Shown in pieces: positions 4,501 to 6,022 of a stretch of DNA of 44,487 bases. The stretch lies in the IMG/VR virus record IMGVR_UViG_2718218131_000009, positions 1-44,487 of that record; one strand, given 5' to 3'. The position numbers and the translations under genes were made by a program. The notes beneath the pieces are model-generated. The model had not been told where the DNA came from. It searched no databases and was given only the letters and a program-made list of their open reading frames with translations. Numbering within the stretch: position 1 is the first letter of the stretch; each line of letters begins with the position of its first letter. This stretch comes from a virus (Duplodnaviria > Heunggongvirae > Uroviricota > Caudoviricetes).

Positions 4501-4770
4501 TTACTTCATCCCGCCAATATTTTCCCACGTCCCGTCAGCACGCAGAATTTGCAGCGGTCTTACCACGCACTGTATCTGCTTTTTATCCGCATCCAGTATC
4601 ACCACCTGCGTGATTATCCTGTCCTGCTCCGGAATAATACCATTCTCATCGGACTCCAGGATGTCTGCCGGCCCCAGACGCAGTTGTGCTGTAAGTAACT
4701 CCCCGTGTTCACGGTCATCATGCTTTCCGTACCCGCACAGACGCTGCATAAGTTTTTTTAGTACGTTCAT
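4501..4770 (-). CDS. Small protein homologous to the tail fiber C-terminal domain
   Basis: Internal ATG (MNVLKK...) at 4770. Shares the motif RLGPADILESDENG...DGTWENIG with the C-terminus of the upstream tail fiber ([14 protein letters not shown]...DGPWQDV). Confidence 0.5.
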   Translation of the reverse strand: MNVLKKLMQRLCGYGKHDDREHGELLTAQLRLGPADILESDENGIIPEQDRIITQVVILDADKKQIQCVVRPLQILRADGTWENIGGMK

Positions 4771-4771
4771 G

Positions 4772-6022
4772 TCATTCTCCTGTTCTGCCTGTATCACTGC
4801 CCACTTCATCCAGCCCCTTAACATCCTGCCACGGCCCGTCACCAAACCTGACCTGCAAATGCTGAAACATCCCCTGAACCTGTGTGGCATCTTTGGGGTC
4901 AAGAAAGGTCAGTCCGGTGATGAGTGCGCCATCTGTATCCGGGAACCAGCCATTGCTGTTTGTCTCAATAATGCTCGCCGGCCCCAGACGAAAACGGATT
5001 TGTGTCTCCCCCGGGTCGCCCTTCGGTCCCTGAGGTCCGGTTGCCCCCACCGGGCCAGCCGCACCTGTTTCTCCTTTCGGTCCCTGTGGGCCTGCCGGGC
5101 CTGCCGCACCGGTATCTCCCTTTGGACCCTGCGGGCCTGCCGGACCAGCATCACCTGCCGGTCCCCGTTCGCCGGTTGCCCCGACAGGGCCGGTGTCACC
5201 GCGCTCTCCCTTATCACCCTTCGGCCCCTGAGGACCCGCGGGCCCCTGTTCCCCCTTTGGCCCGGGAGGTCCCACCACGGTGGGGATTCGGTTTACGGCC
5301 TCTTCCGCCGCTATCCTGCTTTGTTCCGCTGACTGTGCGCTTTCTGCTGACTCCCGGGCTTTTTCTGTTGCGGTCGTTGCATCCCTGGCTGCATTACCGG
5401 CTGCACTTTCTGCCGTCTTTCTTGACAATTCAGCTTCTGCTGCACTTTGTGATGACTCACTGGCTTTTTGAGCGGCCGCAGAAGCCGAGGACGAGGACGC
5501 ATCCTCTGACTGCTTTGCTGAGGCTGCACTTTCTGCCGCCTGCCGGGCTGACTCCGATGCCTCCCCTGCTGAAGTGTCAGCATTTGCAGCGCTCTCTTCT
5601 GCCTGACTGGCTGATATGCCGGCATTCCTCGCGGACGTCTCCGCCTCTCCGGCATTCTTCTTCGCCTCCTCAGCGTGACGCGCCGCTTCTTCCACCATCA
5701 GTTCAAAACGACGCAGTGCCTCCGGACGGGCATCATCCTCCGTCATGGCACCGAGAAAATCATTCAGCGTCCCCGGCTTTGAATCCTCATACACGGTGAT
5801 GGTCCCGGCATGTGACGGCGGGAATCCTTCCACCATCAGAATAACGCTGTACTGACCGTACTCAACGTCCATGCTGTAACGCCCGGCTTCATCCGGATTT
5901 TCTGAGGCCAGCGTGTTCACCACGACCGTGGTACTGTTACGTTTTGCCTTCAGCTGAATGGTGCAGTTCTGTACCGGTTTCCCTGTGCCGTCTTTCAGTA
6001 CACCTGAAATCTTTACTGCCAT
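4772..6022 (-). CDS. Tail fiber protein with collagen-like G-x-x repeats
   Basis: Long run of GPxGPxGxKG triplets in the middle with a globular C-terminal domain. Lies downstream of J and lom as in lambda (stf position). ATG at 6022; the track start at 6028 is a GTG. Confidence 0.8.

Follow-up and report, generated by a model that had tools for sequence, protein, structure and literature searches.

Few genes of Shiga-toxin (Stx) and related lambdoid prophages are as conserved, or present in as many copies, as those for the collagen-like lateral fibres. In the EPclA proteins of enterohaemorrhagic Escherichia coli (EHEC) prophages, the domains PfN, PCoil, Col and PfC follow one another in that order, and PfC, the domain at the C-terminus, both trimerises on its own and nucleates collagen refolding (Ghosh 2012, PMC3368898). 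In phage Sp5 (VT2-Sakai) the fibre gene ORF67 (ECs1228) is essential (PMC5155283) and is followed by ORF68 (ECs1229), which encodes a protein of 89 amino acids (aa); the same pair occurs as L0121/L0122 in 933W and as gp61/gp59 in phi24B. Mondal 2016 (PMC5155283) found no frameshift signal and, as speculation, proposed ORF68 as a 'reservoir' of fibre variation, and a cryo-EM preprint on phi24B lists the function of the lateral fibre as an open question (10.64898/2026.04.10.717836). Here we analyse this gene pair in the 44,487-nucleotide (nt) IMG/VR virus record IMGVR_UViG_2718218131_000009 (the window, by which we mean the whole stretch), an E. coli prophage of the lambda family that is nearly complete. 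A gene for a collagen-like side tail fibre is followed there, after a single spacer base, by a small gene that we call the mini-gene.

The mini-gene is 92-94% identical at the nucleotide level in Sp5, 933W and phi24B, whereas the fibres that it accompanies differ: these short-tailed phages carry a 645-aa fibre of EPclB type, with a different N-terminal attachment region, and hold the pair halfway along the late region, while the window encodes a 416-aa fibre of EPclA type with a lambda Stf-like collar and holds the pair at the prophage end. The window fibre reproduces the PfN, Gly-X-Y run and PfC order of EPclA; the EPclA study makes no mention of a downstream stand-alone PfC gene (PMC3368898), and a trimer of the mini-protein is putative. 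As an object the fibre/mini pair is not novel, being already annotated (PGAP 'phage tail fiber C-terminal domain-containing protein', PHROG 576) and previously discussed, and a literature search by locus tags returned nothing functional. Its interest lies in the close conservation of the thousands of copies that pathogenic E. coli carry: a partner of the mini-protein would bear on how the fibres are built or what they bind, and hence on the spread of Stx phages between strains. We find that the mini-gene is a real translated late gene under purifying selection, and is neither a decaying duplicate nor a switching cassette.

Results

A free-standing copy of the fibre knob

The original prediction, made from the letters of the window alone, had pointed to a long run of Gly-x-x triplets in the fibre and to a repeat of the C-terminal fibre motif in the next open reading frame (ORF). 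Both observations held: the run comprises 30 consecutive Gly-X-Y triplets, and the ORF repeats the whole PfC domain. BLASTP aligns aa 29-88 of the mini-protein with aa 343-404 of the fibre at 24/62 identical positions (39%; 63% positives, E 6e-13), and the Smith-Waterman score of 113 compares with 23.9 +/- 4.1 (maximum 45) for 2000 shuffles (z = 21.8), a significant similarity well beyond the short motif. Against a curated cut-off of 25 bits for PF06820 (Phage_fiber_C, here PfC), mini-protein and fibre score 122.4 and 123.3 bits, each covering the entire 64-position model. Taken together, the whole-model matches and the alignment indicate that the similarity spans the full domain of approximately 62-64 aa rather than the RLGP...DGxW motif alone. 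The mini-protein consists of a 27-residue N-terminal segment and one complete PfC domain, and its relation to the C-terminal domain of the fibre is that of a true paralogue. It matches phrog_576 over positions 1-89/89 (E 2.5e-59) and lies directly downstream of a PfC-ended fibre. Clusters of 89-aa proteins, each counting from hundreds to over 1,300 sequences, share 91-99% identity with it. Membership of the Tfa/gp38 families found no support, as Pfam at E <= 0.1 returned only PF06820, NCBIfam nothing, and PHROGs only 'tail fiber protein' families; a PDB sequence search with the mini-protein likewise found nothing.

At the nucleotide level the two PfC copies are 54% identical over 60 aligned codons and 43% identical at third positions, with differences spread over all bases, and the core CGTCTGGGGCCGGC is the only long stretch that they share unchanged. 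The PfC duplication is thus an old one, and homogenisation of the copies is not taking place.

GGAG (4780-4777) lies 6 nt before the ATG (4770-4768), the fibre stop codon TGA occupies 4774-4772, and a single base separates stop from start (TGA-C-ATG). The mini-gene frame, which is +1 relative to that of the fibre, stays open for 44 codons upstream of its ATG, and some gene callers use an ATG 13 codons upstream, which may be an alternative start; conservation of that upstream ATG is uninformative, because the conserved Asp-Glu codons of the fibre force it. The hairpin that follows the mini-gene (Table 1) folds at -23.1 kcal/mol (z -4.7) and has the features of an intrinsic terminator. No sigma-70-like promoter was found in 4100-6800, which fits transcription of the mini-gene from the late operon.

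Within the N-terminal segment, the linker at aa 12-22 reads C-G-[Y/C/H/R]-G-K-H-D-D-R-E-[H/N/D], with position 14 varying between Y, C, H and R; it would be pure speculation to see in it a site for a metal or a disulphide along the three-fold axis of a trimer. Neither a signal-like N-terminus nor a signal peptide or lipobox was seen in the sequence of the mini-protein, and a lipoprotein or secreted protein was rejected on the ground of the missing signal-like N-terminus. For targeted proteomics of the mini-gene product we name the peptides ADGTWENIGGMK, VITQVVILDADKK and LGPADILESDENGIIPEQDR.

Constraint on the free knob

Among 80 related loci from IMG/VR, the mini-gene is intact as an 89-codon ORF in 79. 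Between the fibre stop codon and the ATG of the mini-gene the distance is exactly 4 nt, the AGGAGAATGACATG junction is invariant, with 23 nt identical in 77/78 loci, and the terminator hairpin is kept. Over 55 distinct mini-gene alleles, synonymous diversity is 0.12 and non-synonymous diversity 0.013, a ratio (dN/dS) of 0.098. Constraint is concentrated in the PfC domain of the mini-protein, where dN/dS falls to 0.043 (45 alleles) and 17 of the 25 segregating sites are third codon positions; the N-terminal 27 residues are looser (0.28). The fibre PfC gives 0.22 (43 alleles), and the synonymous component (pS) is similar for the two domains (0.13 for the mini PfC and 0.115 for the fibre PfC). 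The intact frame and these ratios together show that the free knob copy is translated, and that it is more constrained than the knob borne on the fibre.

The two genes also travel together. Phage records hold the mini-gene in 297 cases and the fibre PfC in 296, and 697 and 696, respectively, of 5,426 complete E. coli genomes carry them, with 6,311 mini and 6,154 fibre PfC copies in all and a median of 10 per positive genome for each. Because the mini-gene accompanies these fibres everywhere and is held more tightly than the fibre knob itself, the free-standing knob gene very probably does something for the phage. The word 'remnant', used of it in the original prediction, does not survive an ORF intact in nearly all loci, the low dN/dS overall and in the domain, a conserved ribosome-binding site and terminator, and the detection of two of its peptides in phi24B virions.

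Architecture of the fibre

The fibre gene is taken to start at MAVKISG; a mechanical ORF list begins it two codons further upstream, at a GTG at 6028. Over its first 94 aa the product is strongly similar to the collar domain of Ur-lambda Stf (PDB 9e7m, 9e7m_Ta; E 1.6e-52). In lambda Stf, a collar domain of the PfN type binds the tail tip (PMC12617516), and the protein is therefore a side tail fibre, anchored at the tail tip in the manner of lambda Stf. The Ala/Glu/Ser-rich segment that follows is predicted, by analogy, to be the equivalent of the 'PCoil' trimeric coiled coil of EPclA (PMC3368898). The collagen region matches Pfam Collagen (PF01391) and also forms direct repeat family D1. A PDB sequence search with the fibre returned only collagens and the lambda Stf collar, with no match for the PfC part.

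Across the IMG/VR loci L001-L080 the fibre is 413-461 aa long, save in L061 and L071, where it reaches 635 aa, and these differences likely come from the length of the collagen region. Many draft assemblies are broken or frameshifted within the collagen repeats. The 11-residue tail that follows the fibre knob is nearly invariant (76 loci).

Distribution and exchange of the module

The original prediction had also inferred recombinational exchange of host-range determinants. Exchange does indeed occur, at the level of the whole unit and not as knob switching. The block 5258-4459, which opens with the collagen region and closes shortly beyond the terminator, is common to the window and the short-tailed Stx2 phage Sp5 at 86% identity; in Sp5 the fibre N-terminus joined to it is another one, the genomic surroundings are not the same, and the homology ends at the terminator. 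This shows that a single mobile unit, made up of collagen region, fibre knob, mini-gene and terminator, is inherited as a whole and exchanged between siphovirus-type and podovirus-type Stx phages.

Exchange between the two knobs is another matter, since 76 fibre alleles and 79 mini alleles include no mosaic. A set of 273 database proteins yielded one singleton chimera, P0177, which joins a mini-protein N-terminus to a fibre-type knob, and one cluster with a 343-aa E. coli fibre, P0262, in which collagen is joined in frame to a mini-type knob. The fusion point of P0262 carries the micro-homology GGNCCGGCA, and at the junction lies a match between collagen region and mini-gene (GGACCGGCA / GGGCCGGCA) that is related to the core CGTCTGGGGCCGGC. 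A search of the complete genomes for collagen-to-mini fusions, with an 80-nt synthetic junction, gave no single-piece match at the top of the list, by a method that merges the halves of normal loci; no database protein holds both knob types in tandem. Such fusions and chimeras are rare accidents.

In protein searches every member of the family comes from Escherichia, E. albertii included, or from Citrobacter rodentium, and an exhaustive profile search of 1.84 billion representatives leaves it essentially Escherichia-confined, adding one informative relative, P0230. Matches in several stretches to SprB and CarboxypepD_reg repeat proteins were set aside, as they look like additive repeat artefacts. 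P0230 (565 aa, from a metagenomic Logan assembly) is a collagen-like protein in which four tandem units of approximately 82 aa precede a long Gly-X-Y run; in each unit the C-terminal half (VVVLDAD...LQVRRADGTW.EI) is PfC-like, and BLASTP aligns the units with the mini-protein at 35-50% identity over the C-terminal 30-37 aa (E 1e-7 to 3e-4). A search seeded with the P0230 units returned only E. coli proteins among the matches listed. The architecture of P0230 suggests that a PfC-like knob is a modular fibre element, which outside Escherichia also occurs as beads along fibres. In C. rodentium (L082-L084) the module is decayed, with a fibre of 161 aa from which the collagen region has been deleted and a mini-gene product of 78 aa. 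This decayed module sits in a prophage remnant, where an NleG effector gene and IS66 fragments come directly downstream of it, and the same arrangement of fibre end and effector cargo is seen in the window.

Genomic setting

The prophage carries a lambda-type portal, gpA terminase, tape-measure protein, tip protein J and Lom, and the coordinates of the features discussed are collected in Table 1. Hairpins enclose J, lom and the fibre/mini pair separately, in a moron-like layout in which antitermination in the late operon would be needed for read-through. Beyond the fibre-module terminator, an IS66 fragment separates it from a low-GC cargo gene and probably marks the point of cargo insertion or exchange. 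The cargo, a DUF4765 gene, lies in an island of 31-37% GC just outside the fibre end of the prophage; the C-terminal ~180 aa of its product resemble a CNF1-family deamidase domain (E 2.9e-20, under the family cut-off), and the gene has the look of cargo of the type III effector kind, at an effector locus open to exchange. The SocA/Panacea-domain antitoxin-like gene and the DNA methylase gene are accessory and unrelated to the fibre/mini pair.

Table 1. Features of the fibre module and its surroundings in the window
Feature	Position	Strand	Details
DUF4765 protein	673-4077	plus	1134 aa; full-length Pfam match
IS66 transposase C-terminal element	4162-4452	minus	96-aa ORF; sole match PF13817
Intrinsic terminator after mini-gene	4461-4485	minus	9-bp stem AAACCGGAG/CTCCGGTTT; last T's lead into short T tract
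Mini-gene	4501-4770	minus	89 aa + stop, ATG 4770 to TAA 4501; stand-alone PfC protein
Mini-protein PfC domain	4504-4689	minus	aa 28-89; PF06820 positions 1-64/64, 122.4 bits
Mini-protein N-terminal 27 aa	4690-4770	minus	predicted short amphipathic helix (aa 3-12), then Cys/His/charged linker; low-confidence AlphaFold2 (AF2)
Short DNA match	4654-4680 with 4964-4990		core CGTCTGGGGCCGGC (14 nt) encoding RLGPA, start of both PfC copies; repeat family D3
Gene junction	4768-4780	minus	GGAGAATGACATG
Side tail fibre gene	4772-6022	minus	416 aa + stop; starts MAVKISG
Fibre C-terminal tail	4775-4807	minus	11 residues, conserved; overlaps mini-gene ribosome-binding region
Fibre PfC knob domain	4808-4999	minus	aa 342-405; PF06820 positions 1-64/64, 123.3 bits
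Collagen-like triple-helix region	5003-5272	minus	aa 251-340; 30 unbroken Gly-X-Y triplets
Ala/Glu/Ser-rich segment	5273-5623	minus	aa 134-250; by position and composition
PfN, N-terminal collar/tail-attachment domain	5624-6022	minus	aa 1-133; PF08400 positions 1-133/134, 230.7 bits
Terminator-like hairpin	6039-6060	minus	between lom and fibre gene; upstream bound of two-gene unit
Lom	6087-6686	minus	
Terminator-like hairpin	6716-6735	minus	other side of lom from 6039-6060 hairpin
Tip protein J	6756-10148	minus	
DNA methylase (N6_N4_Mtase)	26885-27937	minus	
SocA/Panacea-domain antitoxin-like gene	43915-44487	minus	

Discussion

What the free knob does for the phage is a matter on which the evidence is graded, and we offer our preferred reading tentatively, granting it something short of an even chance: that the mini-protein trimerises like the fibre PfC and has its place of action at the fibre's distal knob, as a factor for assembly or an accessory one that is not essential. 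We are led to a role at the fibre tip by the capacity of PfC to trimerise alone, the strict linkage of the mini-gene to the fibre knob, its tfa-like position, and the low-level presence of its peptides in virions, the purified phi24B virion proteome holding two unique gp59 peptides with a count of 3 each beside counts of 47-181 for fibre peptides (10.64898/2026.04.10.717836). Under such a scheme, the mini-protein would be made alongside the fibre by coupled translation and would form a small trimer of its own, as the fibre PfC does. At the side fibre's distal knob it may then be a dispensable subunit, with an assembly or accessory role, that helps the fibre knobs to fold, stay apart or dock, and little of it would be retained in the virion. 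A more specific form of the proposal, which we consider possible though on the unlikely side, is that the mini-protein is an undescribed fibre accessory factor, a free knob paralogue that docks on or transiently pairs with the fibre knob, chaperoning or capping collagen-like fibres, with no relation to Tfa, to gp38 or to chaperone domains of the intramolecular type. If so, strict conservation over approximately 6,300 copies would reflect a conserved knob-to-knob interface, and the finding could help to explain the function of the lateral fibres of Stx phages.

Several observations weigh against an assembly role at the fibre tip. Single deletion of the Sp5 homologue ORF68 placed it neither among the nine essential genes nor among the mutants of altered infectivity in K-12 MG1655, and plaque formation and lysogenisation were not abolished or visibly reduced (PMC5155283), so that any assembly role must be non-essential under those conditions. 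Recombinant EPclA trimerises in E. coli without a helper or mini-protein (PMC3368898), and the mini-protein has no sequence similarity to known Tfa chaperones. The gp59 peptide counts in phi24B are low and could reflect contamination, the authors' own row label being 'Spike or just gp59?' (10.64898/2026.04.10.717836). Structure prediction lends no weight either: our AF2 model of the mini-protein, from a 19-sequence alignment, has a mean pLDDT of 54 and a pTM of 0.38, too poor for a fold search, and AlphaFold gave the phi24B authors no confident model of the fibre C-terminal domain (10.64898/2026.04.10.717836). The contact between mini-protein and fibre is itself putative.

Dispensability for plaque formation (PMC5155283) and low abundance in the virion would equally suit a knob that works away from the fibre, its trimer binding the fibre-knob ligand so as to mask receptors on debris or on the lysogen, or to interfere with the fibres of competing prophages. 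A complete trimerisation/knob domain with its own start codon, strong conservation of the kind expected for a conserved ligand, and the many related prophages that share each genome are in keeping with this idea. We nevertheless think it unlikely: lacking a signal peptide or lipobox, the mini-protein could reach the cell surface only after lysis; the gene belongs to the late operon and lacks a separate promoter; the PfC ligand is putative; and no experimental hint of exclusion or interference has emerged. The 'reservoir' proposed for ORF68 (PMC5155283), with which the interpretation given in the original prediction essentially coincides, casts the mini-gene as a DNA donor, recombination of which with the fibre gene, in the same or in any of approximately ten co-resident prophages, changes the knob and host range. 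The short identical core CGTCTGGGGCCGGC in both copies, the natural fusion of collagen directly to a mini-type knob in P0262, the singleton chimera P0177, and a median of 10 copies per positive genome, which offers ample chance of exchange, all lend it some colour. We judge it distinctly unlikely, however, as a donor with no need of translation should not show a dN/dS of 0.04 together with a conserved Shine-Dalgarno (SD) sequence and ATG, and variation is lower in the mini knob than in the fibre knob, where a reservoir of host range should show the reverse. Divergence to 54% nt identity without sign of homogenisation, the lack of mosaics in both sets of alleles, the standing of the fusions as single records against thousands of canonical sequences, and the lack of inversion repeats and of a recombinase all point the same way. 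As an 'alternative tip cassette' the mini-gene is similarly poorly supported, having its own start, the orientation of the fibre, and P0177 and P0262 as its only chimera and fusion; no inverted repeats flank 4501-5000 and no recombinase adjoins. An invertible cassette was rejected, the neighbours being the IS66 fragment and the DUF4765 cargo gene, with no invertase and no flanking inverted repeats. A diversity-generating retroelement was likewise rejected, given the 54% nt identity, differences spread over all bases, and the lack of an adjoining ORF resembling a reverse transcriptase (RT).

Recoding offers a different route by which the two genes might be joined, a +1 frameshift or similar event yielding two tandem knobs in a fraction of chains. 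The mini-gene does lie in the +1 frame, one base past a UGA-C stop, and its frame is open for 44 codons upstream; UGA-C is a weak termination context in E. coli. The phi24B authors considered fusions too, their search database including the hypothetical 'Fusion_6159_FS1/2' (10.64898/2026.04.10.717836). Against this, no slippery P-site codon is seen among the last codons, GAA being unable to re-pair in the +1 frame, and no frameshift signal was found in Sp5 (Mondal 2016, PMC5155283). The unfused fibre C-terminal peptide is abundant in the phi24B proteome (count 47), no junction or upstream-frame peptide appears among the proteome matches listed, the canonical SD and ATG are conserved, and tandem knobs are absent from the database proteins; we therefore regard such a fusion as very improbable. 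Even less credible, and already contradicted by the selection data, is a non-functional duplicate, the decaying leftover of a past replacement of the fibre tip with no useful product. The gene is short, duplicated and dispensable in the laboratory (PMC5155283), and both genes are truncated in prophage remnants of C. rodentium; yet a dN/dS of 0.04-0.10, intact frames in 79/80 loci with conserved start signals, an 89-aa length held in thousands of copies, and virion peptides are at odds with decay, and the excess of third-position changes in the PfC part (17/25 sites) speaks against an overlapping non-coding function as the source of that conservation. The remaining probability we leave to roles that we have not thought of.

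Comparison with known fibre systems

A second copy of fibre C-terminal coding sequence just downstream of the first is also a feature of the Mu G and P1 C segments and of diversity-generating retroelements. The window differs from these in lacking inverted repeats, an invertase, an adjacent RT and a near-identical template, and in that its second copy has its own start. A parallel in layout exists with lambda Stf/Tfa and the Tfa of Mu and P2 type, where the operon likewise has a small gene directly downstream of the one for the side fibre, and action at the fibre tip would be a plausible further likeness: the one-base gap, the conserved SD, the lack of a promoter-like site between the genes and the terminator after them give the mini-gene a Tfa-like position. 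Lambda Stf needs Tfa for its assembly, in contrast to the dispensable mini-gene homologue of Sp5. The mini-protein, unlike Tfa or T4 gp38, is a paralogue of the fibre's own terminal domain and bears no sequence relation to the Tfa families; it may be that, in these prophages, a free copy of the fibre knob fills the genomic slot that is held in lambda by the tail-fibre assembly gene tfa.

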